From Bigelowiella natans CCMP2755 (Eukaryota; Protista; Cercozoa): DNA of 35,996 nt. Positions 5,391-33,987 of this stretch are shown here, piece by piece. The notes under the pieces are model-generated. The model made no database searches. It had not been told where the DNA came from and was given only the letters and a program-made list of their open reading frames with translations. The stretch lies in assembly GCA_000320545.1 (NCBI GenBank), contig ADNK01000198.1:1-35996 (forward strand), written 5' to 3'. Each line of letters starts with the position of its first letter. Within the stretch, counting starts at the first letter, position 1. The translations under genes were made by a program, and so were the position numbers.

Positions 5391-6541
5391 GACATGGCAA
5401 TAAACACTGATTGGAAGGAAATAAAAAGAATCCAACTTTAAATGCTGGTCTACTGCAACAACAACAACTACAACAAGTACTAGTACTTCACTACTACTCA
5501 AAGGAGCAGCTAAATATATCAGTGTGAATATAAATAAATATAGAAATCCTACATGATCAGATTTCCTTCAGCCTGCGAACAGAAAAGCAGAAGTTGTTAA
5601 CTTCGTGTCTGGCGGTCTCCAAGACTTGTCAATCAGGTAGTATCATCCATGATATCTCTCTTGATCTCTCTTGATCTACCATCTATCATCTATCATCTAT
5701 CATCTATCTCCATCTATCATCATCATCCTCACTACTACTTTTCACAGTCGTACGACATTTGATTGGGGTGTACCTGTTCCTGGTGATGAAGAAAAAAGAC
5801 ACGTGATGTAAGTTTAGAGGAAGTAGGATCATTTGTCTTTGTCTTCTCCTCCTCCTCCTCCTCCTCCTACTACTACTACTTCTACTACTACTACTACTGC
5901 TACTTCTCCTATTATCCAGTCAATAGTCACACATAACGATGCTGTTATCACCACCACCACCACCATCATCATCATCAACATCATCATCATCATCATCACT
6001 AGGTACGTATGGATAGATGCATTGACGAACTATCTCACGGCAACCGGATTCCCCTGGAATGATGATGATGATGATGATAGCAGTAAATTCTGGCCTCCTT
6101 CTATGCATGTCATGGGTTAGTGTTGCTACAAACAAACAAACAAACGAGAGCTTAATACAAATATTATTAACATTGTTACTGATCTAATTGGTCATTGCTG
6201 CTGCTTGCTTGCTTGGGAGAATGATGATGATAAATTATCATTAGGGTTGGTTGGTTGCTCATCCATAATTTGATATTCATATAGATCTCTTTCCTCCCCA
6301 TTTCATATGTAGTACCAACTATTATGAACGAGAATCATAACTAACCGTTAAGTTTACCAAAAAAGGCATTAATAATAATTAATAATAATGATTTATTGCA
6401 GGAAAAGACATCTTAAGGTTTCATGCTGTGTATTGGCCTGCATTGCTAATGGCAGCGGTACTACATAATAAAATAATATATATATATAAACAATTTGTTC
6501 TCACCAGAAAAAGCAGCAGCAGCAGCAGCAGCAGCAACGAC

Positions 6542-11300: not shown

Positions 11301-11740
11301 TCAATGTGATGTATGTACCGAAGCTTCTCTTATGTGGATATGCATATGTGCGACGACGTACAGTACTAATGAAGACATACGTCCATGTATTTGGGATGTA
11401 TTAATATGTGGTCGTAGCTGAAGAACAACTTTAATTTCATCATCATCATCATCATCATCATTATTTTTTGTGGGTAGTAGCAGTGGCAAGGTCAGCCTCT
11501 CGTATGTTTCTTGCATCTTTGTTATCAGCTCTGCATCAGGGGTTGCCAAGAATTTGTCGTACGCTCGCTTTTGCCGCTAGGGGGGGGGGGGAATGATTTC
11601 ATCAGAGAAGAGAAATAATAATAGTGGTTGTCATAAGAAGAATAAGAAGAAGAAGCAGCATACTGAAATCGGAGAAATTATACAGCACAAATCGAAAGCA
11701 CCGGCAACAGTTATAGTAATGTGCTCTTGGTTGAAGAAAC

Positions 11741-12590: not shown

Positions 12591-12913
12591 TTACAAGGAG
12601 GGAGAATTTTAGTATTGTATTAACTATGCTGCTCTCAGTTGCTGCTTACACATCCATATCCTTTTTGTTTGTTTGTCTTTCTTTCTTTCTAAGCTTTAGC
12701 ATCTATCTTCTTGTTACAACAACATACATACATACATGCATGCATACCGGAGGTGGTGGGATATCAATGCTAGTAAACCAGTGGAAGAATGAAGGCTGCG
12801 AGGTTAAGGGGGGGTGGGGGTTCATTCATAGAAGATTGGATCGTTCATCATTATCCATCGTTACAAGTGGGGAAGGGGGGAGATAGAGGAGAATTAGGAA
12901 GGAAAGAAGAGTG

Positions 12914-14397: not shown

Positions 14398-16054
14398 ATT
14401 ACGATAGAATATGATCACACACGTGACAGTAATGAATAATACTGATTAGAGTGAGTAGTTTGTTTACGAAACAGCAGTAGCAGCAGCAGCAGCACGTGGT
14501 ACCATTCTCTCTCTCCCTCTCTTTCCCTCTCGTAAGTGAGTGCTCAGCAGATTGATGAGACAACGTGAAAATTAAACTAATGCTGCTAATAGTACTAAAT
14601 CCCCCCCCCCCCCCCAACCTAATTGCATGCTTCACATCCTCGTGTGCTGAAAGCGCAAGAACCCAGAAATCAGGAATCTATTGTTAAGTATAAACGACGA
14701 TCAAACAATGATAATGATGAGGACGAAAATTGTAGTACTACATTGCAATAGATGCCTGATCGTGTCTTAAATATTTCCTTGGTATCAGCATGAAGCTGGA
14801 AACACACAAGTTATTATTATTCAAACACCACCCAATAAATAAAAAATATAGGAGAGAATGTCTATCAAAGGATGCTGATGCTGATGATGATGAGATGGAA
14901 AGAATTCTCAAATCACTCTACTTGAATAACGACGAAAGATTGATAACATCAACTTATTACTTTGTTGGCATTTCATGTGTGCGTGCAAGAAAAGATACTA
15001 TAGAGTAATCAATGTTAGAAAATGAAAGAAAAGAACGATACTACTTTCCGCTGAAGCTCATATATTTCGTTGCAGAATTTGCCGTATATCTTGTCGTACT
15101 GTTGATCGGAAGAGTGCAGTTTTTCGACAAAAGGACGAACGGATGGCTCTACTAAATTCAGGGCTGTACCTCTTGGATCATTACTATTATTTTCACCACC
15201 AATATCCCCCCCCCCCCTCAATCTAGATACGAGAAGTCGAAGCCCAACTCCTTCCTCCTCCTCTCTTCTTCTTCCCCTGTACGACGACTTCTTTGGCGTC
15301 ATCCTCCTCGTCATCGTCGTGAGGAATTCAGGAGTACCACTATCACGATTATTAGTACTACGCATCTTCCTAGCCGTAGTCTGTGAAGAAGAAGAAGAAG
15401 AAGAAGAGTAGTAAATAAAGTGTTGTTGTTTCATTCAATATCACAACTTGGTTATGAATAGCTGGCTACAACTGGCTTACATGGCATAATTAACACATCT
15501 CTATTTATCATCGTTGTTACAATATACTGCTACTCCATTCATATACACAGCGAGCACATGCATCATCGCGTCGATGCAGATATGAAAAGCTGGCAGAGAG
15601 CATGCTCTCAACCAATAATTTCTTGTCGTCGTCTTTTCAAGCTCGCTCACACAGTAGCACCACCACCTTGGTTACATCGTTCTTACTGTTATCACCACTT
15701 CTACTACCATAACTACCGCCATCAATATCATCACCATCATTAATTACAACATCCTATCATAACCTAACCCTTCTTATTTTCAATAAGCACCTGCTGCTGC
15801 TGCATCATCATTGACGGCTTGTTCGTCATGAAACTTGGTAGCGCGAGAGCTGTGATGACCACCGATAAAACCAAAGTTGTAGTAACCTTATCCCTTGCAC
15901 CACGAGTGATCTTCTGTCCCACCGTTCTTCTACTACTTGTTTTCCACACCGTGTTCCGTCTTATTGATGACGATAACATCAGTGGACCATGCTCGTGATG
16001 ACGACGACGATTTTGATGATGACTAGATGCTACTGGTTGAGTAGCAGAGGCCAT
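11301..16054 (-). CDS. Nucleosome assembly protein (NAP/SET family histone chaperone) with a long N-terminal leader
   Basis: Spliced exons: EIYELQRK|LHADTKEIFKTRSGIYCN|IPDFWVLALSAHEDVKHAI|SNKDMEILRYLENIEV...GFT|LRFKFRSDNPYFDHPEL|SKTYEM...IKWK...PSFFHWF...KDDILPHAVEYYTGE. These are the IPxFW, NPYF, SFFxxF and IPHAV..TGE motifs of the NAP family. The exact 3' end is uncertain. Confidence 0.88.
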
Positions 16055-16217
16055 TTCTTAATTCTTGCTATCGCCACCACCGGATTAGCCCGGTCGTAAC
16101 TGCTCGGAGAGAGCAAGCCACTCACTGTGTTCCTTCCTCCGCCTCCTTTCTTCGGCTCTCCCCGCCTTGAAAAGAGTTGTAGTGCTCCTCCTTGTTTTCC
16201 CTCTCTGAACTACGGGA
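16055..16217. promoter_or_regulatory. Putative compact bidirectional promoter between the NAP and BET-like genes
   Basis: ~160 bp, relatively GC-rich and microsatellite-free, between divergent ATGs at 16054 (-) and 16218 (+, inferred). Confidence 0.4.
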
Positions 16218-19200
16218 ATGGATCCTATCAGGTAGTAAAAAAACAAATGATGGAGGACTGTGCGAATTATTCCAGTTTTGTCATTTTAATAAGTGAGGAG
16301 GTCAAAAGGGGATGGATCGATGATCTCCCAGTCTATTCTCGATGTGCCATTTACAGTAGCAACTGTGCGCAAATTGTGCACTGTTCAAAACCCCCTCCCC
16401 CCCGACCCTACACGCCTATATTCTGCTACATAAATCCTGCCAGAAGGCATCAGCCATTTGAATTCACAATATGGTTTAACTTGAAGAGCGGGTTGCACAT
16501 TGCGAATACAACCACACATTCCTCTTAGAGGTATCTATGCGCCAAGAAGAACATAATCTATTGAACCAAGCTAAATAATTGTTTCCAGAGTATGACGTCA
16601 CCATTCTCTGTCTCCCCCTTATTGGATATCTAGACAGAATATCTAACAAGTGGGCCCGATGCTACCCCCCTACCCTTCCGCGATTGCCGCAACAATGAGA
16701 GACAGCGCTCACAAAGGATCACCATCGTGAGTAGTCATAGGGACTATTATGAGACTATTTGTTGGTTAATATATCATTTTGGAAGCTTAGGGCTTCGGAA
16801 ATCGCAAATAGAAAGGGGGGGGGGGGAGATAGCACCTGTGCAATGTTTCAGAACTGCAACGGTGATGTCCCTATAATTCTTTGCTATTCTATTATAAACG
16901 ACTAATAAATTTACTAGTCGTAGATAAAGATTTATAATTGATACTGAAATAGTATTTTTATGATAGGGCGTTACTTAGGATTGAAGTTGTGGATGTTGTC
17001 CGGGTAGGGGAGAATTAAGATCTTAAGAGGATCATTTGAACAGCATATATTTTCAAAAATTAATAAACTTGGCAGCGTTTTCTTTCATAGTTAGTTGACT
17101 ATATCAATGAAACGGCACATCTGATGGTGTGTCGTTCTATGCTGGAGACTGGCTGAGAGACCTGCAAGGCCGATATTTTAATTTTAAATGTACAACACAA
17201 GCTCAATTTTTTCGCCGAGCCGAGAAGAAGCGACATAGAGATTTATGGGATATTTGGCACATGTACTTGCTTAATTTTGCTCTCCGGAAAATCTCCTAAT
17301 TTGCATGCGCTCTCACGGAAAAAGAGTCTTCACGTCCCATCGCCCTTTCGTCTTCTCCGTCACCAGTCTGAGAAAATCGAAAGGCATCGTTCGCAGATCT
17401 ACTTAAGAGAAAGAAAGAAAAATTTGTAGCAAGAGCTGTAAGCAAGCTTGTACCTCTAAGAAACACCGATGAGGCAGAAGTTGGGGCAGGTTACGATTGT
17501 CGGAATTACAGTACTCCTTATCATCCTTGGCGTTTATTCATTAACGGGGGGGTGTACCTGACGAAACTATCGAATCATTTATTATAATGAAAATTAATTG
17601 AGAAGAAGGTCGTTCATTTTGTGGCGTATTCTTCTTCTTCTTCTTCTTCTTGTTCTTCTTCTTTTCCTAGGTTGTAGCAACCAAGGAGCTTCAAAGCCTC
17701 CGAAAGGAGGTAGCACGCCTGAAGCGACAGAATATTTCTCAGGAGAAGACAATCGCAGCATTAAGAGCGAAACTAAAGGCTGCTACTGTTGGTGCTATAC
17801 GTACCGCTTCTATGGAAAACTTTAGCCGAAAGAAGGGAGATACTAAAGTTGCTGCTGCTCGGCGAAATAAGGCTAGGATGGTGCGTGGGGGTGGTAATGA
17901 AATCAAAGTTGCCAAGGGAAGAAGACACCAATCTATGGCACCTCCATCAAGGGTAAATGTATGATAACTTAGTAGTACAAAAATGCATGTGTGTTCGGAC
18001 CTTGCTGACTGCGTTTCTATCATCCGTACTATCACCTGCAGAAGCATGGCCATCCCAGCACTAAACGCCGTGGTCCTCCACCAAAAAGAACTGAGATGGA
18101 GCAAGAGGCTGTGTTAAAAGATGATAGGCGTAAAAGATTGAAACACCGAAAGGCTGGAAGGGGGGGGGGAGGCGCTAGCATGTACGACGCCGTTAATAAC
18201 GATGCGAAAGGAAGGATAGACGAAGAGACGAATGGGTGGGTGGGTGATAGAGACAACGGCAGCATCGTGATTCAAATGCCAAAAACTGCGGAGAGATTGG
18301 GCACTATTCTTGATGCTGTCTTTTCATCCTTCTCGTCTCCACTGTATTCATTGGGTATAAAACCGATTTTGGGAGATGATTGTACATGGCAACGCCTCCA
18401 ATGTGATGGTGCGGTGATTCTTGCGAATAAAATCGAAGAATATGCATCTCCTTCTCCTTCATCGAAGCTTCGTTTTCTACGTGCAATCGATCTGCGGGAA
18501 AATAATATCACTGACGCTGGTGCCTATCGTCTCTTTCAAGCGTTGAAGGGATGCTGTCCAAGTACTACATAGATGAGGAAGAAAAGAAAAGAAAGAGCAT
18601 TAAGGGAGTAGTAGCGGGAAAGGAGGGAGGGGAGGGGGGAATCATCATGTAGCACCACTGTTTTTCGTTGTGTTATAGTCATTGATCAGTATAGAAGTAG
18701 AGAGTCCGCTATTACTATTAGTAGTAGCAGCAGTAGTAGTTCTGAATTATCCTCGTCTCTTTCGTCGTCATTATGATACTTCATTATATTATCTATTCGT
18801 CGTCGTAATTATCATCATCATGCTTGTTCGGGATACTTCTGCTACTTTTTCCTCCTCCTTTTCTAGGGCTAGAAGAATTGCTCCTCTCTCACAACCTTAT
18901 GCGTGATGCTGGAGGCATAGAGGCAGCTAAATTTGCACTGGAACATGGCGGAGTAATAAAAATGAGTGGCTGTTCTTGAATGTTTGTGTCTGTAGTAGTT
19001 AACAACAACAACAACTACACGAATGAAAAGAACGAAAGATGGTTTCTAGTATCCTTTATGTGGTGACGATGCTAATTCTCTTCTTCTTCTTCTTCTTCTT
19101 CTTCTTCTTCTTCTTGTTCTTATACAGGTTCGATCCATTGACCTTGCCTTCAACTCCATCACAGAAAAGGGAGCAATAGAAATAGTTGCGATCCTTGAAA

Positions 19201-21663
19201 GGGGAGTTATTTCAAACCAGAAAAGCAACAACTTGAGAAGTGGGAGAGATGATGGAAATAATAATACAGAGAAGAAAAAGAAGAACAGGGCATCATCATT
19301 ATCATCGCCAACATCCTTAGGAGATAATAGGAAAAGAACGAGACAAGCAGCAGCAGCAGCAGCAGCCTCGAAGAAAACGACAATAGTCGTCGATGATAAT
19401 GATGATGACGGTTACAACGGATGCTCCTCCTCTTCCTTCTCCTCCTCCCGCCAGGAGCACCAGCTACACACATTTGATTTATCCGAGAATCACGTACAGA
19501 TGACCACCATTGCGTGCATAAAAAAGCAACTGCGCCCTATGGAAGAAGAGAGGTAGATCTAGGGAAACAAAGTTGACTTCAGATCCTGTAGTAGTTGTAG
19601 TAGTTAGTGGTAGTAGTAGTCGCTGGAAGACAGGCAGACGTGACGGAACTGACAGCAACAATTGTGAGATAGATAGATAGATAGATAACTTTCCGATGAT
19701 GCACCATGATGACGATAAGATGATGACGACGACGACGACGACCATATTTTAACAAATAATAGATAGCAGAAGCATCTGAAACAATAGCTACTATAACACT
19801 CTCACTAAACAAAATATAATTCATTGGTTGGATTATCTACGAAAGGGCGCGTGGTAGGAATAAGCTAATAAATTCTACTCAACTACGATCTGGAAAAAGG
19901 AAGCGACAACTTGCTGCCGAGTTTACGCCTCGCATTCGACGGAACTGTTCGGCTATCATAGATATTCTGTGCAACCACAAGCTTGCAAGGTGCTAGAAGA
20001 ACGTAGTATTCGTAGTAGTAATTGCTAGGTGCTAGTTTCTATGTATTCTGCAGTTAATAATGACTAGCGAAGAAATGTAATCTTCAATCTTCTCTTTCAC
20101 TTCTATTGTCCCCTTCCTCTCGTAAGGTACTTTCTCTGCGGTCAAAGAAAGGGTGTGGAGAGCCGAATAAGCAACAGCAGCCGCAGCAGCAGCAGTCACG
20201 ATGAGGCATTCCTCGAGTGTGTTGGGGGGGGGCGACAACCCATATATTTAGACATGATTAGGGATGGAGTAGAGCAGGGGAAATACTGGCATGAAACTGA
20301 CGTTTTCGCAGCATTGAGGTAAGTAAGGAGAAGATTTACAAGAAGAAGAAGAAGAAGAAGAAGAAGAAGAAGACCACCATAAACGCCCATCATTATCATC
20401 ATCACCACCACCACCACCACCACCACTATAATGAGCATGAGCATCGTCGTCATCATCATCATCATCATAATAATCTTAGGCAATGCTTCGAAGACGCACT
20501 TTCGTTTTACAAACGTGGGTCGGCAGAGCATAAAGCAGCAGGTAGACTCTCACAACTTTTGGAGAAGAACATAGAGCTACTTCCGCCAGCGATCAGGTAA
20601 TATTTTTCTTCACTCATCTTTTCATCATGGTTGTTATTATTGTTGTCACATTCTCTTCCTCATTGATTCAGGCCCCCATTTGACCCTGCTACACCCTCAA
20701 TCGTCCGAAGAATCTTGTACCTCCACAAGGGGGGGAGGCATCAACATGTATTCTCAAAGTATGATAGAGAACTAGGAGAAGATAATAATACGCAGGAAGA
20801 CAAACAAGGAAATAATAAGAGGCCTACAATGGAGGATGATAAACAGGTAGTATGCTCCGTCATCATCATCATCATCATCATTAGCAGAAAAATACTCATC
20901 AATAGAAGAATAATCAGAGGAAGAAGAACCAACCACCATATATTACCATTTGCAACTAGCTATTCATTAGATAAATAAGACTCACAATTGCCCTGGTTTC
21001 GTTTATTTTTTCTCCTTCACCTCCTCCTTTTCCTCCCCCCCTTTCTCCTCCCCCAGGTCTTCCGTCATATTTACTCTCGTTTAGTGCGGAGACCAACCTC
21101 ATCCCGTGCTGTAATAAATCATTACGGTTGGGCATTGTTGGCGTCGCTACGAATCACACGCGTCTGGCCTTTCATTAATCCGATAGATGTTGATGCTCTT
21201 AAGGTGGTGGTGGTGGTGGTGGTGGTCGTGTATTTTTTTACTTCTTTCCGGGCAACTTCATCAATAAAGAAGAAGATCAAGAAGAATGTGATCAAATGAA
21301 AATGGAAGAGGATTAGAAATGCAGCTGCCTTCCTCCTCTACCCTATTTAATTGGTGTCCTCCTCCTTCTCCTCCTTCTCATCCCTCTCATCCTTCTCCTC
21401 CTTTCAATGCTCGTACTACCATCTGATGTTTGTTACCTTTATCATCGTCGTCTTCATCATCGTAGTTGTTGTCTCGATGACGATGACAATACGTACATAT
21501 ATACATATATACTTACTACTCTGTGGCTCTACCTGTCGCGTATACATAGATTCCTCGCTATCTTGAGATCGTAAAGACGCCAATATGTCTAGAGGACGTA
21601 AGAAGAAACCTCAATGATGGCGTCTACCAAACGCTGGATAAACTCCTTCTGGATGTAGAAAGG

Positions 21664-21694
<31 letters not shown>

Positions 21695-24134
21695 GAATAA
21701 TAAAATACATTAGACACTATTGCAGTTGTTGTTCACTGAAGATCCAAGAATTATTCCTGATCATCGTATTTTTTCTTTTACGTGATTATTACTTATTTGT
21801 CACAGGTGTTTGAAAATGCGATGAGTTTTAATCACAAGAAGACGAGGTACTTCAAAGATGCTGTCGAATGTTGGCAGCATTTCTTAGACACTATCGTCAA
21901 GACTGTTCCAAGGGATATCCTCTCCGTTTTCTTCCCTTGGCGCTCCTCCCCCCCATGTATCATGCGCCGTGTGTTTCTCTACGTCAGAAGTCGCGAACTC
22001 AAATTTACGGTAGTAGTAGCACTAGTACTAGTAGTACTGGTAGTAGTAGTTATAAGGATTTACCTCCTCACATCTAGCTTCTGAATCCGATGATGCTGCA
22101 TCATAATTATTCATCATCGTGGTCACTATCATCAGCGTCTTCACCATCATAGTTCTCAGCATGATCATTATCATTTAGTCTAATTCCTTTGTTGCTGTTC
22201 TTGTAGACCTGTAGATCTCAGGTTAGGAGACTCGCACGACGCCCTTTAAAGATGGTCTTCCGCCGTAAAAATGCAATAGAGGGTATCATGAGAATAAGGA
22301 GGAGAAAGAAGAAGAAAAAGAAGGAAAAGTTCACATGGAAGAAGAACAGCATTGAAGGAGGAGGAGCAGAGACTATTATGGGGAAAAGAAGAAGCAACAA
22401 CAACAACAACAATAGCAACAAAGAGTCGAGTACAGGAGGAGATGGTGTTGACGCGATCGACGATGGCAGCAACCATCCCTTTAGGATCATTCAATCTTAT
22501 CTACTTCACAAAATAGTTCAATTTGTCACAGTCAAAAAGAACAAGAACAAGAAGAATAAGACGAAACAGAAAGCATCATCCATACAATCAGTACCTAACA
22601 CTATGGAGGCGGGGAAGGAGGAGGAAAAGCTGAGGAAAAAGAAGAATGATAATAATGATCTTGGTAGTGAAAACGATTATGGCGATAAAGTTCAGGCCAA
22701 CGGTGAGAAGAAGAATAACAGCGGCAACAGCAGCAACAACAACAACAGCAATATCATCAAAGAAATAATATCAACATCAACCACCTCCTCCTCGTCCTCC
22801 TCATCGTTTATTTCATCATCATCGGACAACACCAAGAATATGATGACGACAATGAGGGCGAGGACGAGAAATAATGTACTGCTACAAGAAGACACCACCG
22901 ATGCTTCTTCTTCGGGTAGCCATTGCGTACATCCGAGAGAAGAGGAGCTGCTTCATGGGAAGAAGTTGTTGGAAAAGAAGAAGAAGGAACAGCTGCCAAA
23001 GGAGAAGAAGGAGGAGGAGAGAGTAGCGGTGGATGTTAAAGAGGATATGAATAATAAGGAGGAGGAGGAGGAGGGGGAAGAAGAAGAGGAAGAGGAAAGG
23101 GGTCAACAGCCACAACAGCAGCAGGGAGAGACGAAGAAAGATACAACATTAGCAAATTATTTCGACGACAATGATAATGAAGATGAGAAGGAGGATCATG
23201 AGGAGATTATTCCTGTGCAGCACCGTGGTCCTGGTAGTAATAGCGGTCGTAATTATCGATATTGGTACGTGGCCTACATCAATCCTGACACGTTTGGCTG
23301 CCTTCTCATACCGTTGCTCGAATATGATAACGGTGAAGAAGAAGAAGAAGGAGGAGGAGGACAACAGCAACTTTCTACCAACGCAAGAAACGATAACGAT
23401 AACAATAACGAAAATGAGGATGATGATGATGATGATGATGATTCCCAGCAGCATCCTCATCGCCATCGATCCAATATTCATCATCGGCGTTCATATGGAC
23501 GAAGAAGAAGGGGGAGGGAATTAAGATTAGCAGCTTCTATCACCGCTGATCCTAACAATCAGCAGTCCTGTTCACATAATAATAAGTACTATATGATAAC
23601 TGCTGATTGTACCGAGTTAGATGTAGTTCCTGCTATAAGGAGAGTAGAGGAGGAGGAGGAGGAGGAGGAGGAGCCAGGAGCAAAGCGAAGTGAAAGAAGA
23701 AGCAACCTTAATGATAATGACGATAGAATCCGTCTTATAGCAGATCAATATCATTATCCTAATTTCATGAAGAAAAAGGTAGGTAGTACTGCTCATCAAT
23801 TGATCAAGAGTAAAATTGTATTGAAATTATATCAGTAAAGAAGCAAATACTTCTAGCTATGAATAATAGTATTTATGGAACTGCTACTACTACTACTACT
23901 ACTACTACTACCTCCACTGCTACTCCTACTATTATCACCATACCAAGAATCGAATCGTTGTAGTTAGAATGAATGGTTAAGCCTCCTCCTCATCTTCTCA
24001 TTTACATAATCCTTCTCCTGCTGCTACTGCTCCTCCTCCTCAAACCCCTCTCTCCCCTCCCTCCTTCCTCGGCATTAATTCTAATGATCTCTATCTGCTG
24101 TGTTTTACTGGTGGTTCTCTTCTATCGCAACAAC

Positions 24135-24166
<32 letters not shown>

Positions 24167-25808
24167 CAAATATAAGACGAAGAAGGAGCATAACGCTTTC
24201 TTCACGTCATCACCAAGATCTTCATTCCATCGTGTTTTCGCTGGTGGTTCATCTCCTACTACACCTCTACGGTCCTCCTCCTCGTCGTGGGTGCTGCTCG
24301 ACAAAGAAGACTGCGACAAGGAGGAGGAGGAGGACGACGACGACGACGATAACGATAACGACAATAAACAACAACAACAACAACAGAAAAAGAAGAAGAA
24401 AAAGAGGAAGGGGGCAGAGGAGGAGGATGAGAAGGACGAAGAACCGGAGGAGGACGACGAGGAGGAGGAGGAGGATATTGAGGGAAAAGACAACAATGAA
24501 GTGTCAGCAGCAGCCTCGGTTGTACTACTCACTCATGATAAGAGGAGCACACATATAGTATATATACATGTATATTTATATAGATCTGTGGCTGTATTTT
24601 ACATAACCTCTATCTATCTATCTATCTATCACAATGTATTAGCAGGAGGGAAAAGCCGGCTCTCCTTCTTCTTCTTCTTCTTCTTCTTCCTCCATCATCA
24701 CTACAGAACGTCGAACCTACACTACACGTCGTTTGAGCAGCACGAAAAGAGGAAGAAAAGAAAAGGGAAAGAGTAGAACAAGGATAAATGCTCATGCAGG
24801 CCCCGTAGTAGTAAAGCCCATATTACGTTCAGTTCTCGAGACAACAACTCTCAATCGGAGCTTTTGGACAAAACGGAAGAAGACTGACATAATGATGATG
24901 CAGCACCAAGTGGTAATACTACTATTAATGTCAAATGAAGAATATATGCATTCATGCTACCATTTTCACTCACTACTACTACTACTACTAATACTACTAC
25001 TACTAATACTAGGGCTCTGGCACTGCGACATGGATTTGCCCGATTTGTGAGCTGAGCAACTCATACGATGATGACGACGATGATGCTACGGGGAGTAGTA
25101 GTGGTGGTGTAGTGTTCTGCATGAGATGCAGTGCTAGGTGCCCTGTTAATGTAAGGAATACGCTTGAGAAGGAAAAAAAGAAGAGGAAAAACAGGAAGAA
25201 CAAGATGCTACTAAAGGTGATAATCAAGAAGGAAAATGATGATGAATCAGAGGCGACTATAGGAAGAATAGGAGGAGGAGGAGGAGGCTCAATAGTAGCT
25301 GTAGCAGTACTAATACGTCTGATGGTGATAATAACCTTGATACGACTCCTTTTGCCCATTATCTCCCTCATCTCTCTCTTAATCAACAGACGACAAAACA
25401 GAATGCTGATGATGGTCATGGCCATGGCGCAGTCAATCGTCCCGACGGAAGAGAAGCGAATCTATTCGAAAAAGAACAAGATGATGACGAGAAGAAACTA
25501 CATCATAGACGACGACGAAGTGTTTGTGAGGTGGAGGATGTGAAGCAGAATATAGAAGAAGAAGAAGAAGAAGAAGAAGAAGAAGACGATGAGAGTGCCA
25601 CAGATTACTGTAACGAAGATACAAAACGGATTATGAGAAAGCGCAAAGGAAGGCCAGCGACAAATAACAAGAACAACAACAAAAAGAACAACAAGAAGAG
25701 AATCAACCACCGGCAAGAGCAGCATCAAAACCTACAAAGACCTCCCAGCACGGTGGCAGCAGGAAACGATTTTTCATCATCGGTTGGTTATTGTCACGAA
25801 AGAGGAGG

Positions 25809-25840
<32 letters not shown>

Positions 25841-25845
25841 CCATT

Positions 25846-25876
<31 letters not shown>

Positions 25877-26154
25877 CCATCATGTTCATCTTCTTCTTCA
25901 TCTTGATGATCTATATTTGTAATATATTGTTGATTTGTTGTTAATAGGATTTCTGCGAGCAGCAGCAGCAGCTACAGGATGGAGACCATATTCGTGTGAC
26001 GTGGGATGACGAGGGGACCTTTGACTGTATCCTGCATGCCCGAGAAAAAAGAGTAGGAGGAGGAGGAGGAGGAGGAGGAGGAGGACCACCGAACAATGAC
26101 GAGGAGAAGGAGAAAGGAGACTGCTGGTACGTACGTACATACTTCTAGTGGATA

Positions 26155-26190
<36 letters not shown>

Positions 26191-26245
26191 AGGTAGTAGT
26201 AGAAAAGGAGGAGGAGGAGGAGGAGGAATTAGTACAGAAGTTTCC

Positions 26246-26280
<35 letters not shown>

Positions 26281-27378
26281 CTCGTGATGATAAATACGGG
26301 TAAATGATCATGTTGATCTATCGTGTCGTATCGTATGATGTCATATATCTATCTATCTATCCTCCTCCTCCTCCTCCATATTATTATTATTTGGAGTAGT
26401 AATCCAAATAATACCTGTCCTCCTTGCCATCATTGTATCATCATCATCAGCAGCAGCAGCAACAACAACATGGTTGCTTGGTTGCTTCTTTTTTGTCTTC
26501 AAGTGAAGAGTCGCCTTGTCCTCAATATTAGTAGTTCCGACTACTACTACTTACTACTGCTACCACCATACATACATACATTCATACATTCATTCATTCA
26601 TCGATCCATCCATCCATCTTCCAGGTGCGTGACTTCACTGGATGGACGGTTTAAGGAGGTAATTCCTTTCGATACAGAGGAGGACAGCTGGGAGCTTATA
26701 GCAGCAGCAGCATCAGCAGCAGCAACAGCAGCTCAAAGAAGAAGAAGAAGAAAAAGAAGAAGAAGAGGAGGAGGGGGAAAGGCCACCGATAAGAAGAAAA
26801 AGAGAATTGCTAATAACATTGATCAAAGAGGAGGAAGAGGTGTCCCGAAGGAGAAGACCACGACGAATCGCAAGCAAAATAGCCAAGAATCATCGTCATC
26901 TTCTTCTTCCTCCAAGGAGGGAGGGGGAAGAGATAACAGCAGCCAAATCCAAGTGGTGGCCAGGAGGAGGCAGCAAGAGAAAAATAGTACAGGTAGCAGT
27001 GTAAAGACAACGAAACAAGCTATGGAGGAGGAGGAGAATGAGAAAACCAATGAGAATAACAATATTAGGAGTAGTAGTAGGAGAACCAACCCCCCCTCCT
27101 CTATCCCGCTGCTACCTCCACCACCACCGATTACATTTGAAGACAAGCAACAATTATTCCAAGAAATACATCAACTTCCCACTGGAGCCCTTGACGACGT
27201 AATTATAATTATAACAATATATATAATAGTAATAACTATTACTTCAAAGCTTTATGAAGGTTAGAGAAAAGAAAAAAGAAGAAGAAGAAGAAGAAGAAGA
27301 AGAAGAAGAGACTGATTAAAGTAGCAGTAATAGACCTTATTTTTGTAATCTATTTGTCCATTACAACAACAACACAGC

Positions 27379-27415
<37 letters not shown>

Positions 27416-27434
27416 CTAGACATGCTCTCCTGGG

Positions 27435-27467
<33 letters not shown>

Positions 27468-27807
27468 TCACCTAAGATATAACATAAACCCCCCTCAAGA
27501 CATTCTATTCTCTTCCCTCTTTACGTTGAAACTACTACTACTACTACTACTGATGATGATGATGATGATGATGATGCTCATTTCCATTCTGAATGAAAGA
27601 AGAAGAGAGATAATACAGCTAGATACGGGATGATAACATCACCAACTTGTGAGCAGAAAGATGATGATGACGATGATGATGATGATGATGAGGAGGAGGA
27701 GGAGGAGGAGGAGGAGGAATCCATATCAGTTTAATTCCAATCTCGTTGTGTCTAAGTAGGAAAGGGAGGGGTGGCACATGGACAATATCCCTTCTTCCTC
27801 CTTCTTC

Positions 27808-27850
<43 letters not shown>

Positions 27851-28287
27851 TTTTTCTCCTCCTCCTCCTACCTCCCTCCCCCCTTACTGACTTAATCTGG
27901 CTCTGTTTGTTCTCTTTCTCTTTCTCTTTGTCTTCTAGGTGGTAAAGGTAATCCAAAAGTTCCATCCTCACAGTTTGATGCAGGACAAGGGAGATGTATC
28001 CTCAAAGACACCTAACGGCGAAGTAGAGATCGATATTGGACTGTTGAGCAATCAGTGCTTGTGGGAGCTACAGCGCTTGATTGCCGCTGTGCGTCTTGAT
28101 AAACTAGAACCGAAGGTGCTACTACTAGTTGCACATATTGTGTGTGCGCGTGTGCAGTCCCTCCTCCATCATCATCATCATGGCTATTAGTTTTTGTGGT
28201 TGTTTGGTTGAGTGTGTGCTGCTCCTACTGCTGCTGTTGCTGGTGGTGGTGCTGCTGCTGCTGCAGATGGAAAGAGGCGATTGTAAG

Positions 28288-28325
<38 letters not shown>

Positions 28326-28929
28326 GTAGAACAATCCTGGATGATAAACAAAGTAAAGGAGGAGGACAAACAGTCATAAAAGACTACATAATCCTACCCG
28401 CTCATTGAAATGCGTGCACATTTATCAATATCATTATTATTATTAATATCATTATTGTTTATTACATTGTTGTTTTTGTTGTTGTCTTTGTTGTGTTCTT
28501 CTTCCACAAGGTTGGTATGCATCTTACCGTATGGTTTTCAAAACCTCCCAAGTGGTTCGGTGGGTGTATAAAGCAGGTACTTGCTTCTTCTTTTCATTTC
28601 GCAAAAAAAGGATGCCAACGTTTAGCGGCAGAAATATAATTTTGCTCAGCTAATGATATTGTCATGGCTCTCACCTGGAGAACCTATAGAAGTAGTTGAG
28701 AATTACCAAAGATATTCGGTGCGATGTATAATATCGTGTTGCTACCCTACGGAATGATTACTATATTCATTATGTAATAGAGAAAAGTGCTCTTTTGACA
28801 GCAGATTGTCTGCTGATGTAGCCCTAGCTTCAACTGTGCTCTATAAGAAAGAATATACTACCAAAAGGTATCCAAGATATCGGAAGAGAGCTGGAAATTG
28901 ACGATTGCTTATTATGACGAAGAAGAGGA

Positions 28930-28969
<40 letters not shown>

Positions 28970-29303
28970 GCATATGGTGAGAACAGGCAGTGTTGTGTCG
29001 GGGTGTGTGAATATTTTATACCGAAATTTGTAGGATTTTTTGCTCATTTGGCCATGAACACCATTTGAACAACATCATCTAGTCTTTTCTGCAGCATGGT
29101 GCCAACGTAGTAACATCAACAATAATCATTGCCATTAATGACAGGACAGGTTCTTAAAAAAGAGGAATTCTTTTAAATGAAAAAAATTGAAGATTCTCTA
29201 AAATAAAAGATTTGATGCATTTTATCATATATCTTAGGTCACAGTCTACCCAGATCCTGATGGGCACATCATTTTAAAAAGACAAGCACCCAAGCAGCTC
29301 TAA
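16218..29303 (+). CDS. Large multidomain BET-like chromatin reader: LRR, 2 bromodomains, RanBP2-type ZnF, Tudor-like, ET, Tudor-like
   Basis: Phase-consistent exon chain including 16634-16726, 16833-16861, 16967-17003, 17091-17126, 17202-17262, 17397-17551, 17671-17952, 18042-18561, 18867-18952, 19128-19552, 19858-19989, 20127-20318, 20480-20596, 21057-21203, 21550-21663, 21806-22009, 22207-23778, 25948-26126, 26625-27198, 27939-28115, 28511-28576, 28868-28930 and 29238-29303 (TAA). The start codon and the LRR-to-bromodomain junction are inferred. Confidence 0.7.
18460..19530 (+). other. RI-like (ribonuclease inhibitor/RanGAP-type) leucine-rich repeats
   Basis: LRAIDLRENNITDAGA, LEELLLSHNLMRDAGG, VRSIDLAFNSITEKGA and LHTFDLSENHV match LxxLxLxxNxIxxxG. 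Confidence 0.85.
19940..20570 (+). other. Bromodomain 1 (non-canonical)
   Basis: CSAIIDILCNHKLAR|YFL...QPIYLDMIRDGVEQGKYWHETDVFAALR|QCFEDALSFYKRGSAEHKAAGRLSQLLE. Confidence 0.75.
21100..21905 (+). other. Bromodomain 2 (canonical, WPF shelf and conserved Asn)
   Basis: VWPFINPIDVDALK|IPRYLEIVKTPICLEDVRRNLNDGVYQTLDKLLLDVER|VFENAMSFNHKKTRYFKDA. Confidence 0.9.
25031..25144 (+). other. RanBP2/NZF-type zinc finger with an acidic insertion
   Basis: WICPICELSN-(loop)-CMRCSARCP fits W-x-C-x2-C-x3-N...C-x2-C. Confidence 0.65.
25970..26700 (+). other. Tudor-like domain 1 (split by intron 26127-26624)
   Basis: LQDGDHIRVTWDDEGTFDCILH...DCW|CVTSLDGRFKEVIPFDTEEDSWELI resembles PDS5-type Tudor domains (G.rI.VwW...DG..E.....WELI). 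Confidence 0.55.
27130..28090 (+). other. ET (extra-terminal) domain
   Basis: ITFEDKQQLFQEIHQLPTGALDD|VVKVIQK...GEVEIDIGLLSNQCLWELQRLI. Confidence 0.9.
28511..29280 (+). other. Tudor-like domain 2 (C-terminal)
   Basis: PK|VGMHLTVWFSKPPKWFGGCIKQ|VSKISEESWKLTIAYYDEEEE|VTVYPDPDGHIILK. Confidence 0.55.
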
Positions 29304-30709
29304 AAGTAGCAAGTTCAGCAGTGCTGAAAATTGAAAGAGACTCAGATGATATTTTTAATACATATCAAAACGTGCTATGATACGTCTCGCTAGATGGTTC
29401 ATTGTCATGAACATTTGGAACGTAATAAAATAAAAACACTGCATCTATGTTGCTCTAGCCGACGGCTTGCAACATGTGCGATGCGATGTACTGGCGGTTA
29501 ATAATAATGCCAATGGTGATTTGCTGAATCCTAGAGTTATAAATTCCACTAAACATCACATCGATAATGAATGTCTAGCTTATTTGTGCCGATGTGCCAT
29601 ACGCACAGCAACTCGGCTACGCTTGCTAGCTTGTGATCTGCCACATTGAACATACTAAAGAATCTGGCTTCGATTTCGCGGTCGACGCAGTGCTCCCAGC
29701 ATGCAGCTGTAGTGTGACAAGGGCCATGACTTGCTACATGTTCGATTGCATTATTTGACTTGCCAAGTATGTTATTGCACGTCGTCGCTGCCGAACATTG
29801 CACAAAATAAGTTTGAATAAGGCTCATTAGCTCGCCATAGATTAATGTTGCACACAGGCGCGGTGCACATCTAGATCGACATCATGAGCTAAGCAATCGA
29901 CTAAACATCGCTAGATCAGCTCTCATGCTAGCATGCTGCGCTGCAGTTTAGCTAGCTAGATGCTCATGTTCTGGATCTGCTAGATTTGCATGCCCTGTGC
30001 ACGTGTGTTGCTTCCTATGCAGCTTCCTCTAGTCCTCCCACTGGCACGCACAGCATTTCCAGACTTCGGACATGAATGAAGCGATCGAAAGTGAGCAAAA
30101 ACTAAATCTTTCATCAGAGCAGCAATGGACGTTCGGCGTCAACACTATTTGCACTTGCTGTGGATGTAGCGGATTCATTGCAATGAGTTGCAGCAGCTCT
30201 GAAGCGCACACAGGAAAGAGCACCGCCATCCAATTCAACAAATCGTGTGCAGTAATCTATGAATATTTAATTCGTGCGTGTTCTTATGACTCTGCTCACG
30301 ACGGATGAATCGTTTTACTTCTCCCTACTTAGCGTGTATTATCATCATGATAGAGCACTGTCCCTCCACTGTGCTAGCGGCTGTATCATATCTATAAATG
30401 TCGAGCATCATGCTATGAACATACCCATACCGACGGGCGGATACTCACCAAAATGGGGGACAAGGAAGGCAACTTTATCAGTTGATGTGCTATTATTTAC
30501 TGATCTGTATGTTTCTGCGGCCTTAGATGTTCCTCTTCCAAATGAGCGAATCAAGTAATATTCCAGATGCCTATTATCATTGTCGCATCTACGGCAACCA
30601 CTACTTCCACTTGACTACCACTACTACTGCTGCTACTATGTTGTTCCTATCATCGTCACGTATTGCAGCTGCTGACTCAATAGTTGATGGAACTACGGTT
30701 GGACTGCGT
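29304..30709. other. Second convergent-gene spacer with the same composition
   Basis: Shares exact 12-16-mers with 10065-11300. Confidence 0.7.
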
Positions 30710-30744
30710 TCAGCATGCACAACCCCTGTAAAATATATAAAAGA

Positions 30745-30780
<36 letters not shown>

Positions 30781-30952
30781 CCAAAGAAAGAGAGAAAGAC
30801 GGTTGAATGTATTAGACAAAGTACACTGCTAATGCGAAGAAGTTGGCCGGAACACGAACCACTTTGTATATATACAAATCGATCAGAAACCTCGTCTGTA
30901 GTCTTGCATTCATTTGCATTTTGAAAACTCGAAAATAAGAACGATGAGAGGA

Positions 30953-30997
<45 letters not shown>

Positions 30998-32006
30998 TGT
31001 TGAGATAATACTTATTATTATTTGTACTACTTTCCGCCTCCTCCTGTGTTGCATCTGCACGTATCAGTTGTCGATGGGGCTAAGCGCCGAACCGACTCAT
31101 CAATCTCTAATCCACGGGAAGTCTAAGAAACATCACTCATCAATCTCTAATCCTCGGGAAGTCTAAGAAACATTACACGTCTTACGTCGTAAGAACAATA
31201 AAGGAGAAGTACCATTACGTTTAGGCATACAGATATAAGTACAAATCTAGCCACTTCAGTCCAAACTAAAACTACTACCACTACCACTACCACTACCACT
31301 ACCACTACCTTGAGAATCTCCTCCACAAGTGACGCAAATGCTTCATCCACATTAGCACCTACAATCATGCAAAGAGGGACGAAATTAAGAGTAGAAAGAG
31401 GATGGGAATTAGTGAGAATTCTTATTAGTGTGAAAATAATGCCATAGTTATTCCAAGGTCATTATCTTGATCATCACACTACTACTAACTACCTGTGTTG
31501 GCGGAGGTCTCGAAGTAAAGCGAATGTTGGTTTTGAGCCAACTCTTTTCCTTCTTCAGTGCTAACCTATGGAGAAGGCCGGTGACGAGAATCATCAAGAT
31601 TGGAAGGCTTTCAATAAACATTTCGAGCTGACTAATTAAGGTAAGGCGGGAGGGGGGTTGAGGGGGGAAGAGATTGTTCGAGACCCTTTTGGGACGGACC
31701 GCATTTTATATAAACGTGGACGATCATCTCACGCACACGCACACGCACACAAAGTAAGTATGAGGGTCTTGACGCATGTAAAAGGGTGTTAGTGATACTT
31801 GTTGCAAGATATTGAAAAGAAGAGATTGAGCAGTGTACTGTTGGACGCATTGGATAGTTCTCTTGTACAACTAGAGATGCTGCTGCTGGTATTACTACTA
31901 CTGCTACTACTACTTTTCGGTCCAAATCCGCCTTGTTTCCTACAATGGCGAAAGCCACTCCATCTACAAACTTGCAAGCCTCTTCTATCCTGCAAGTGCA
32001 GAAGTA

Positions 32007-32039
<33 letters not shown>

Positions 32040-33063
32040 TAATTAATAACGATGGTGGCTTTCCGACAATCCAGTTTCGATAAATAATAATACGTGGTTT
32101 TAAGTGCCATGTTGGTCATCATGGCCATTAAATTGAACAACAACAGCAGAAACGAAAACAACAACAACAATAAGAACAACGTATAGAAGAAGGTTTTTGC
32201 ATCTTTATGTCGTTCGAAGCTCCATCTACAGACAACAACATCCTCCCTTGAATGGTAGCAGAAATCATCCTACCATTTAGTGACTCGATCAAATGAGGAA
32301 GGAACCGTGACATCGTACACAACCTGATGGTTATAATCTTAATAATAATGAAGACGGTCATGAAAAATGGGCGTGCATATTGCTGTTTCAGGTGGTATTG
32401 CTCGAATGCTGACCATGATGCCTCGAGCCCCCCGGTAGTAACTCGATGTTATCGTACGGAACCGTTCTTGCCCCGCTGAATAATATGATTTGGATTTTAT
32501 TTGTGAATCTACTACTTGGTATTGTTGAGAATACTGGTGTAAACAACTACCATGCGTCTACTACTACCACCACTACTACTTTAACACCACTACTACTACT
32601 ACCACTACCCGTGTCCCATATCATAAGCTTTAGATTTCTCCCTTTGACTTTCACCGCTTTTGCTTTGAAGTCAACGCCTATCGAGTCAAGGAATAAGGAA
32701 AATATGGTTATAGTATTTGGAAGCGAAGTTGCGAAAAATGCATTGATGATAACATGATTGGTAGCTGTAACACAATAATCCCCCTTTACCTATTGTGGAC
32801 ACGAAGGAAGTGCTGAATACATCATCTACGTAACGCGAAAGCAGAGAAGTTTTCTGGAAAATATACGAAAGGGAGTCAGAACAATGGTAGGTGTTATTTT
32901 TACTTAGAAAGTCGCAAGCTTCTTTTTCCCCCCCTCGTCACCATTCATTCACGACAAATCCTCTATACATTTTAGTTCGTTTGACCCCTACGCCGCTGTC
33001 TCCTATGAGTACGATCTTAGCCAGATATGTAGGGTCTTCTTCATCTTGGACAGGGTCCTCCAT
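30710..33063 (-). CDS. Rab small GTPase (Rab1/Rab8/Rab18-like)
   Basis: KIVLIGDSGVG|KTSLL...STIG|VDFK...IWDT|AGQERFRTITSSYYRGA...VVYDVT...VGNKADL...YFETSA...NVDEAF. The final exon 30725-30710 gives the C-terminus GGGGKGCAC* (CxC prenylation motif). The gene may extend 5' of ATG 33063. Confidence 0.93.
31095..31173. repeat. Tandem 40-bp duplication spanning a Rab 3' splice site
   Basis: actcatcaatctctaatcc(a/t)cgggaagtctaagaaacat occurs at 31095 and 31135 with one mismatch. Confidence 0.95.
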
Positions 33064-33987
33064 TACAGCATCTATCCCCCTCCCTACTCGTCGTTGCACT
33101 TCGTCTCTTCCTTTATTCTTCTCGGCAATAAATGAGGCTTGAAACTGGGCTTTCAACTTGTTGTCAATGATAGGCAAAAAGTAATCGGAAATACTTCTAA
33201 GAATTAGAACGAATCGAACTCACTCAGAGACAAAAACTCAGAGGCAACGTTCAGTCTCCTTGTTTCCATCCGCAACCGAGACTACTACCACTACGAGACA
33301 ACGGATGTTCTTCGTTACTTGAGACATGGGGAAATAGCTTGTCGCAGGGTGAAAATCTGGATCTTTTCTTTCACTATTCTTCTCCGACCCTGGGCCGGTC
33401 TTCGGAAGCCTGATCATCGCTTCAGTCCTGTTGATGCTACGATCGTACATCGGTGGTGCATCGCTTGATAGGTAAATTATGATAATCGATGAATGCTGAA
33501 CTTTCATCTTCTAAGAAAGCACATGCATCTACAAGACAAACTTCGTTCGTCGAATGCGTTTGCCTGGTCGCAACAATGCATTGTGCACGTGGCGACGAAG
33601 GACAAGCTAGTGCGGATGGACAAAGATGCGATGTTCAATTTTTTCAACAACAATGTTCTAAATGTTCACTATCTTACTCAATTATTATTCCGTTAATTCT
33701 CCAGCTCTAGAAGAGAAATTTGCATTGTTGCATGTTTTCCCGCCCATTAGTATATAACAGCTTGCAAGGAAAACAGCCACCAGTTTGGCGCTCACATAGC
33801 TAGATGCAAGCATGTGGTCACTTATTTGTTAGCAAAAGTAAATGGTCGGAGTTTTAGCGCAAAAAATGTCATCAAATTTTTTTTTATTCCAATCCTTTCA
33901 TTTTGTGCCATACATTTAAGATCTTTTTTTCGGGCTTCACAGGAGAAAAACTTTTTCCGGTATTTAAAAAGAACATTAGATATATAC

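Follow-up and report, generated by a model that had tools for sequence, protein, structure and literature searches.

It is established that proteins of the chlorarachniophyte nucleomorph can be encoded by the host and bear bipartite leaders (PMC5635652, PMC6411479). The Bigelowiella nucleomorph takes up histones H2A and H2B that the host encodes; the passages available of the study concerned report Hira but no FACT in this nucleomorph, and do not mention NAP (PMC4822330). The peptidase that removes periplastid leaders has been described as unknown (PMC5756292, PMC6115763), stromal and periplastid cargo have been noted to be hard to tell apart by sequence (PMC3542566, PMC4822330), and 2,331 B. 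natans proteins have been left as 'possibly plastid/PPC' (PMC5635652; PPC, periplastid compartment). Here we describe a gene on the minus strand of Bigelowiella natans CCMP2755 contig ADNK01000198.1 (the window, 35,996 nucleotides, is the whole stretch analysed) that encodes a histone chaperone of the NAP family behind a leader ending in RLRGG.

We consider it likely that this host-nuclear gene encodes a NAP1-type chaperone whose 145-residue leader carries it into the periplastid compartment, and we are highly confident that Leu-x-Gly-Gly (L-x-G-G) is a real signal shared at the ends of such leaders. Cleavage exactly after the Gly-Gly is predicted and seems reasonably probable, and for the whole chain of import, cleavage at GG and chaperoning of nucleomorph H2A-H2B we would put the probability at about one half. 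An imported NAP alone is a finding of an expected kind; what is new is the di-Gly site that the leaders share.

Gene structure and transcription of the leader

The preliminary description of this DNA had placed RLRGG at 15224-15210, at the end of a leader of ~145 residues in frame with a NAP domain. Spliced contigs and a database protein (P0003, 490 residues) confirm this arrangement, with the motif forming residues 141-145 of the spliced protein on the minus strand. The contig runs are only presumed to be RNA, and were taken as such because they skip GT-AG introns. Single contigs span the join of 15791 to 15380 in all three contig runs aligned (X1, X5, X6), and pieces from X2, X9 and X13 also terminate exactly at donor 15791; run X20 had no piece ending at 15791 among the rows listed. 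The contigs of three runs carry on from exon 2 through eleven more exons, giving 13 in total, while a single raw-read run reached the 3' end of the gene only and was uninformative on its start. Exon 1 opens at the ATG at 16054; six bases upstream of it lies a TAA in the same frame. The 5' starts of the contigs (16226 in three runs, 16378, 16395 and 16807) are all upstream of the hydrophobic exon. The hydrophobic and Arg/Ser/Thr-rich leader is therefore on the mRNA, as had been proposed, since contigs join its exons and no listed start falls downstream of the hydrophobic one.

The GG codons fall within a run of 12 G. Contigs X1 and X6 are identical to the window over 15045-15377, without mismatch or gap, and so the run that encodes GG is not an assembly slip. 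The features of the gene are as follows.

16055..16226, minus strand: 5' untranslated region, from contig starts
15791..16054, minus strand: coding exon 1, residues 1-88, with the basic n-region, the hydrophobic segment and the start of the Ser/Thr/Arg-rich spacer; from the open reading frame, contig donor ends and P0003
15839..15877, minus strand: hydrophobic core, residues 60-72, mean Kyte-Doolittle hydropathy 2.59 over 13 residues, with aligned segments in orthologues
15381..15790, minus strand: intron 1, GT..AG, phase 0, from spliced contigs
15045..15380, minus strand: coding exon 2, residues 89-200, with the rest of the spacer, EEEE, RLRGG, an Asn/Asp linker and the start of the NAP dimerisation helix
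15252..15263, minus strand: patch of four Glu (EEEE), residues 128-131, with no counterpart in the orthologues from Norrisiella and Amorphochlora
15210..15224, minus strand: RLRGG, where the basic leader ends and processing is proposed, with L[RK]GG in P0002, P0155 and P0007
12302..15137, minus strand: NAP fold, residues ~170-410, exons 2-11, from contig joints, GT/AG, Pfam, the structure model and the fold search
15380-15045, 14795-14742, 14677-14619, 14317-14239 and 13926-13876, minus strand: exons 2-6
13507-13462, 13282-13222, 13051-12985, 12795-12748 and 12547-12302, minus strand: exons 7-11, the join of 12748 to 12547 being picked by GT-AG and agreement with P0003
11461..12038, minus strand: exons 12 (12038-11994) and 13 (11576 to the stop at ~11461, RNA-supported frame), with two C-terminal helices

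P0003 equals the spliced product bar two residues and the C-terminus. Relative to the window, all four runs carry an additional base at 11506 and differ by a substitution at 11555; read as it stands, the window gives 534 residues, whereas the RNA-supported and the database protein have 490. The discrepancy is probably an assembly error or a strain difference. A second record, jgi/Bigna1/127135 (P0004, Bigelowiella natans, in the same 90% cluster as P0003), agrees with the window translation, which places the gene in a nucleomorph-bearing organism, as the import hypothesis had presupposed. This reference model starts inside the NAP domain, without the leader and the first two thirds of exon 2, and predictions based on leaders would therefore miss the protein.

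An N-terminal extension from a further-upstream exon was ruled out by the in-frame stop just before Met1. The contigs of X1, X9 and X13 break at exactly 16226, beside an AG that follows a pyrimidine tract, and continue with 28, 6 and 2 loose letters, respectively, that are absent from the window. This break could mark an intron in the 5' untranslated region whose other exon lies far off, a leader added by trans-splicing, or an artefact of assembly. Splicing at 16226 would remove short upstream open reading frames at 16350 and 16284.

The NAP domain, its leader and their relatives

The cargo matches Pfam PF00956 (NAP) at residues 218-401 with 128 bits against a cut-off of 28.6 (E 4e-37). An AlphaFold model is confident over residues ~160-410 (helix 170-216, sheet 248-338; predicted local distance difference test, pLDDT, mostly > 90), has low confidence around residues 144-154 and is disordered in the leader (residues 1-119, pLDDT < 50). 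The NAP domain had been placed in the same exon as RLRGG: the dimerisation helix (170-216) does start there, and the Pfam core lies in later exons. A Foldseek search returned NAP1 and NAP1-H2A-H2B structures first (E 3e-15), followed by SET (1e-11), NRP (2e-10) and Vps75 (2e-9). By sequence, the top solved relatives were Plasmodium NAP and plant NRP, above yeast Nap1, with identity to solved NAP1 structures of only 24-29% and a long branch. Using signature patterns for the end of the NAP1-type and SET/NRP-type core, the NAP1-type signature was matched in P0003 and in three relatives introduced below (P0002, P0155, P0008); the regular expression misses P0007. The clade of leader-bearing NAPs was placed outside a SET-like outgroup. 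On these sequence grounds we are moderately sure of the NAP1 subtype. The part after GG would be a protein of 345 residues and 39.9 kDa with an isoelectric point (pI) of 5.0, in which two C-terminal helices, of mixed charge in four family members, replace the acidic tail and CaaX-like end that many NAP1 proteins have.

In the leader (pI 12), the hydrophobic stretch VTTTLVLSVVITALALPSF occupies residues 57-75 (15886-15830), and A69-L70-A71/L72 is what we take, by the (-3,-1) rule, to be the candidate signal-peptidase site. The spacer that follows, residues 73-145, has a net charge of +10 and is 38% Ser, Thr and Arg; the next 25 residues are net -2. Hirakawa 2010 is said to describe a basic Ser/Thr/Arg-rich, transit-peptide-like spacer, then acidic residues, in periplastid-targeted preproteins. 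The B. natans spacer has this basic-then-acidic order, as do those of its orthologues.

A search of 50% representatives recovered four close relatives. Two are complete, from Norrisiella (P0155, YTLRGG, 45% identical) and Amorphochlora (P0007, GRLKGG, 33% identical); P0002 is truncated at its 5' end, 80% identical and keeps RLRGG, and P0008 is without the leader region. Together with P0003, all three complete members have a basic n-region, a hydrophobic core (mean hydropathy 2.6-3.2), a basic spacer of 37-73 residues, L[RK]GG and a net acidic stretch, the spacers of the orthologues being net +5 to +9 and the next 25 residues -3 to -4. The leader is otherwise unalignable among orthologues. The EEEE patch to which attention had been drawn is present at residues 128-131 and is not conserved in Norrisiella or Amorphochlora; it was rejected as a component of the signal.

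One alternative is that translation starts beyond the hydrophobic segment, or that this segment stays in place as a membrane anchor, and that the protein acts in the host endoplasmic reticulum (ER), cytosol or nucleus. In its favour, and against periplastid import, the segment is recessed: 59 residues separate it from Met1, or 34 from Met26, and the n-region before it has a charge of +10. The leader also holds several internal Met codons; the first JGI model has its start within the NAP domain; and no leaderless B. natans NAP appeared in the searches made, which could not list all B. natans NAPs. However, every listed 5' contig piece starts upstream of Met1, the orthologue n-regions are short and ordinary (20-23 residues before the same segment), and the ER lumen is not known to offer a histone chaperone any role. 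We regard a protein acting in these host compartments as improbable.

L[RK]GG preceded the core in none of 144 other NAPs (5154 upstream residues), and LxGG in one. A second leader-bearing NAP family has RLSGG (P0083) and RFRGG (P0181) at the same place; its B. natans member, Bigna1/138302 (P0180), has an N-terminus with YQGG and LEGG and no clear hydrophobic core. In all five leader NAPs measured, GG marks the shift from a basic leader (pI ~12) to an acidic mature part (pI 4.5-5.2). In Bigna1/138302, B. natans has a second NAP with a long N-terminal extension, and chlorarachniophyte-like records contain two or more leader-bearing NAP families besides that of P0003. A profile search found only five proteins, all already close to the set, and a metagenome scan with the orthologue alignment gave 598 pattern matches, none confirmed.

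Two trees were built, one with FastTree (134 rows, after 17 tandem or short rows were dropped and 8 duplicates or fragments skipped) and one with IQ-TREE (quick, LG+G4, 52 hand-picked rows). The leader clade was strongly supported, and three leader families were each supported and not joined to one another. A green-algal affinity, raised in the preliminary description as a phylogenetic check, was not borne out: neither tree ties the leader-NAP family to green algae, and its position is left open by both. We claim neither a green-algal nor a rhizarian origin. The open trees, and the third leader-bearing NAP, P0023 from Amorphochlora, which has no GG at the boundary, count against our preferred reading of an imported NAP cut at GG.

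Recurrence, proposed cleavage and probable destination

The Amorphochlora pyrenoid-fraction proteome was used as an independent dataset, here through the portions available of its text and tables (PMC10927497, Table S1; 154 proteins, 134 nucleus-encoded). Table S1 holds 14 LRGG occurrences. With RbcL (plastid-encoded, internal), a ubiquitin-actin fusion, the duplicate fragment PPAP102 and the internal PPAP93 set aside, ten distinct nucleus-encoded proteins have LRGG at about residues 51-109 (by eye), nine of them behind a hydrophobic segment, against the single internal match of PPAP93. Their cargoes are RanGAP-like, a PPIase, an AAA ATPase, importin-4-like, CK2 beta, HSP70 and four without matches. 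Calculated from the letter frequencies of five NAP leaders, the expectation for LRGG within residues 1-120 of the 134 proteins is ~0.9 (P ~5e-8 for ten). A count of such motifs had been proposed in the preliminary description; in this dataset it went in its favour, with LRGG at the leader end of ten unrelated proteins. Variants were also found: LSLQGG in PPAP9, whose leader carried green fluorescent protein (GFP) into the periplastid compartment (PMC10927497), LKGG in PPAP134, and MLRGG in PPAP27, a putative periplastid protein. The available text of that study does not remark upon the motif.

These counts bear on the possibility that RLRGG arose by chance where a G-run met an Arg-rich leader in a repeat-rich genome. 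The GG does lie in a 12-G run, shuffling of residues 1-160 yielded RLRGG in 0.12% and L[RK]GG in 1.2% of cases, and the six frames of the window contain a second RLRGG, at 12801 on the plus strand, which is antisense, non-coding and derived from a homopolymer run. Because a non-coding RLRGG also arises in this way, a single occurrence is weak evidence. Judged from the sequences, what exceeds chance is the conservation and recurrence of the motif, at the same place in three genera and a second NAP family, and ten times against ~0.9 expected in an independent proteome. The chance origin is already largely refuted and we hold it to be very improbable.

The Amorphochlora orthologue P0007 is itself in this dataset as PPAP142, annotated NAP1-related, with 3, 6 and 4 peptides in three replicates. 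Its presence in the pyrenoid fraction may be explained by the periplastid compartment, which penetrates the Amorphochlora pyrenoid (PMC10927497). Several observations count against periplastid import: PPAP142 ranks low in the fraction, the fraction also contains host-type proteins such as the ubiquitin-actin fusion PPAP151, and the signal peptide of PPAP142, found by TargetP and PredSL, was missed by SignalP3 and Predotar, two of the four programs, although its n-region is shorter than that of the B. natans protein.

Is the motif specific to periplastid proteins? Among 25 GFP-localised rows, 15 are stroma-side and 6 periplastid-side; 4 were left out (capping vesicle, ER, plastid membrane), and an LxGG inside the signal peptide of PPAP23 and one near residue 141 of PPAP4 were not counted. 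Strict LRGG occurs in 1/6 periplastid-side against 1/15 stroma-side proteins (p 0.5), LxGG at the leader end in 2/6 against 1/15 (p 0.18), and LxGG plus VRGG in 3/6 against 1/15 (p 0.053). The periplastid enrichment in these counts is not significant. Also against periplastid specificity are three periplastid-side proteins without such a motif (PPAP12, PPAP13, PPAP20), the localisation of PPAP10 (RRLRGG) to the pyrenoid matrix by GFP, and the LKGG of phosphoglycolate phosphatase, an enzyme that is normally stromal. Proteins can thus reach the periplastid side without L-x-G-G, and the motif is not clearly confined to those that do; the case for periplastid specificity comes from what the cargoes are rather than from the GFP rows.

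The motif might thus be a general processing site of the plastid complex, with the NAP going on to the stroma or pyrenoid to chaperone basic non-histone proteins. PPAP10, the phosphatase, the NAP orthologue in the pyrenoid fraction and the lack of significant periplastid enrichment would all fit. However, LRGG is absent from 14/15 stroma-side GFP proteins, the annotated LRGG cargoes are mostly of kinds found in the eukaryotic nucleus or cytosol, histones are absent from the stroma, and the periplastid compartment reaches into the pyrenoid, which explains co-purification. On balance we find this account unlikely.

Cleavage at GG was considered from the position of the motif and from peptides. 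For HSP70 and the AAA chaperone of Amorphochlora, recognisable mature sequence begins at most a few residues from GG (by eye). In the available peptide table (PMC10927497; a tryptic search, apparently of one replicate), peptides spanning the junction or starting at GG were absent for all six proteins considered (PPAP9, 10, 38, 104, 134, 142), but the downstream controls were absent too (3/3), and peptides upstream of GG were absent for the three proteins checked. Three peptides of PPAP142 from one replicate all lie within the mature part.

At the B. natans site, P4 is hydrophobic and P2-P1 are Gly-Gly, and the linker around them is unfolded. Such a combination is a known cysteine-protease specificity: coronavirus PLpro cuts LxGG and adenain (M/L/I)xGG, as do African swine fever virus pS273R and Ulp1/SENP at such sites, on unfolded linkers and without need of a folded ubiquitin. 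Most deubiquitinases, by comparison, need the ubiquitin fold for efficient cutting. To our knowledge, no such di-Gly-specific enzyme has been localised to the periplastid compartment.

The site had been called a ubiquitin mimic, and it does present an RLRGG tail before a cargo. The term in its strict sense is too narrow because there is no ubiquitin fold before GG and the motif varies (LRGG, LKGG, LSGG, FRGG, LQGG). Neither leader exon has a Pfam match at E up to 1, an ESM Atlas search with residues 50-165 gave no usable match, and a degenerate ubiquitin domain in the leader was rejected for want of a fold and a Pfam match. A di-Gly-specific protease would fit the variants at least as well as a classical deubiquitinase. 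A first candidate for the GG peptidase, suggested by annotation, is B. natans JGI 35899, a USP8/UBP5-like hydrolase predicted 'plastid' and one of four deubiquitinase rows among the rows listed in the part of the table available (PMC5635652).

By proteomics, ubiquitin enzymes were found without leaders, but a leader-bearing ubiquitin gene is noted (Hopkins 2012, PMC3542566). Two observations call for caution: the internal RGG of Toxoplasma PUBL, expected to be cut, stays uncut (PMC5487736), and chlorarachniophytes are without the ubiquitin-dependent SELMA translocon (PMC5756292). Alternatively, the NAP could be imported into the periplastid compartment with L-x-G-G serving as a recognition or stop-transfer element or a hinge, and the leader kept or cut elsewhere. 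The missing ubiquitin fold, the intact PUBL site, the absence of the motif from 3/6 periplastid-side proteins and the lack of a visible cut in a peptide table that also lacks its downstream controls speak for such a role; the GG at the basic-to-acidic boundary in 5/5 leader NAPs, the mature starts of HSP70 and the AAA chaperone and the protease-like P4 and Gly-Gly speak for a cut site. We consider an uncut motif rather unlikely, and prefer cleavage.

The proposed mechanism is as follows. The recessed hydrophobic segment would direct ER entry and be removed near A71 (a start at Met26 would give an n-region of 34), and the basic Ser/Thr/Arg spacer, residues 73-145 (net +10), would act as the transit-peptide-like part across the outer membranes. 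In the periplastid compartment, a protease reading a hydrophobic P4 and Gly-Gly (a USP-type deubiquitinase or a clan-CE enzyme of Ulp/adenain type) would remove the leader, which would also block onward import into the stroma, and the acidic 345-residue mature protein would bind imported nucleomorph H2A-H2B. The data show how the gene is built, that it is transcribed with its leader, that its product has a NAP fold, that the leader layout is conserved and that L-x-G-G recurs at leader ends; all steps after transcription we infer. As to the original proposal of a nucleomorph-imported chaperone, the leader layout, its GG end and the orthologue in a plastid fraction favour it, and a green-algal origin found no support in trees that leave the position of the clade open. 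More tentatively, many chlorarachniophyte leaders for the periplastid compartment and nucleomorph might end in L-x-G-G and be cut by a ubiquitin-type or clan-CE protease that would be the missing leader peptidase, the NAP being one substrate and the H2A-H2B chaperone that the nucleomorph lacks a name for; cutting in the remnant cytoplasm would then both mature proteins and keep them from the stroma.

PPAP10, PPAP104 and PPAP142 are RanGAP-like, importin-4-like and NAP, respectively, all with a GG-ended leader, and the fold search matched the yeast Nap1-H2A-H2B-Kap114-RanGTP complex (9B3I). Together the three might make up a module, itself imported, that delivers histones to a nucleomorph without a canonical pore; the matrix localisation of PPAP10 counts against this.

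Elsewhere in the window, a methionyl-tRNA synthetase exon (PF09334) lies at 6004-6117 (plus strand). One or more spliced transcripts at ~17670-29450 (plus strand), divergent from the NAP gene, encode leucine-rich repeats (weak Pfam) and a bromodomain (PF00439). A spliced gene at ~30200-33070 (minus strand) appears by eye to encode a Rab-type small GTPase; the one short exon scanned had no Pfam match.

Looking forward, a short conserved motif at the leader end makes the periplastid leader peptidase testable by a two-residue change in transformable Amorphochlora, and a motif scan could sharpen the predicted nucleomorph proteome. The gene also names a candidate chaperone for imported nucleomorph H2A-H2B that the leaderless reference model had missed.

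Comparison with known systems

A literature search found no LRGG or GG motif described in targeting leaders; Curtis 2012 and Hirakawa 2009-2012 were outside its reach and may mention it. The available passages of PMC12730881, PMC6559170, PMC6115763, PMC5635587 and the PMC5443833 supplement hold nothing on the motif, save one diatom presequence. That presequence, of the translocator TPT4b, ends near RGG (PMC5635587 Table 1).

Substrates of PLpro, adenain, pS273R and Ulp1/SENP share with the NAP site a hydrophobic P4, a free P3 and Gly-Gly at P2-P1, but the NAP site would end an organelle targeting peptide and not a polyprotein or modifier precursor. Ubiquitin fusion precursors, including ubiquitin-actin PPAP151, likewise have RLRGG directly before a cargo; the NAP leader is, in contrast, a targeting sequence without ubiquitin fold in which P3 and P4 vary. 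Toxoplasma PUBL and the SELMA system resemble the proposal in placing ubiquitin-related chemistry in the periplastid compartment (PMC5487736, PMC5756292, PMC6115763), but SELMA is a feature of red-lineage plastids that chlorarachniophytes reportedly do not have, and PUBL keeps its RGG uncut.

With the NAP1 family (yeast 2AYU, 5G2E, 9B3I; Plasmodium 3FS3, 3GYV; C. elegans 6K0C) the protein shares the dimerisation helix, the beta-sheet domain, the NAP1-type C-terminal core signature and an acidic mature part, whereas it adds a 145-residue bipartite-type leader and is without the acidic tail and CaaX-like end. Also comparable are the host-encoded nucleomorph and periplastid proteins H2A, H2B, POLD, POLH, RFC1, RPA1, Nup98 and Rae1 (PMC4822330, PMC5635652, PMC6411479), for which the passages available, including part of the Suzuki 2016 table (PMC5635652), mention neither a NAP nor a GG motif. 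Of these, H2A, H2B, POLD, POLH, RFC1 and RPA1 have been placed in the nucleomorph by GFP, as has EFL, whereas the B. natans NAP is known from sequence, transcripts and the proteomics of an orthologue. Like them, it is a chromatin cargo of eukaryote type from this organism that follows a hydrophobic segment and then a basic spacer.

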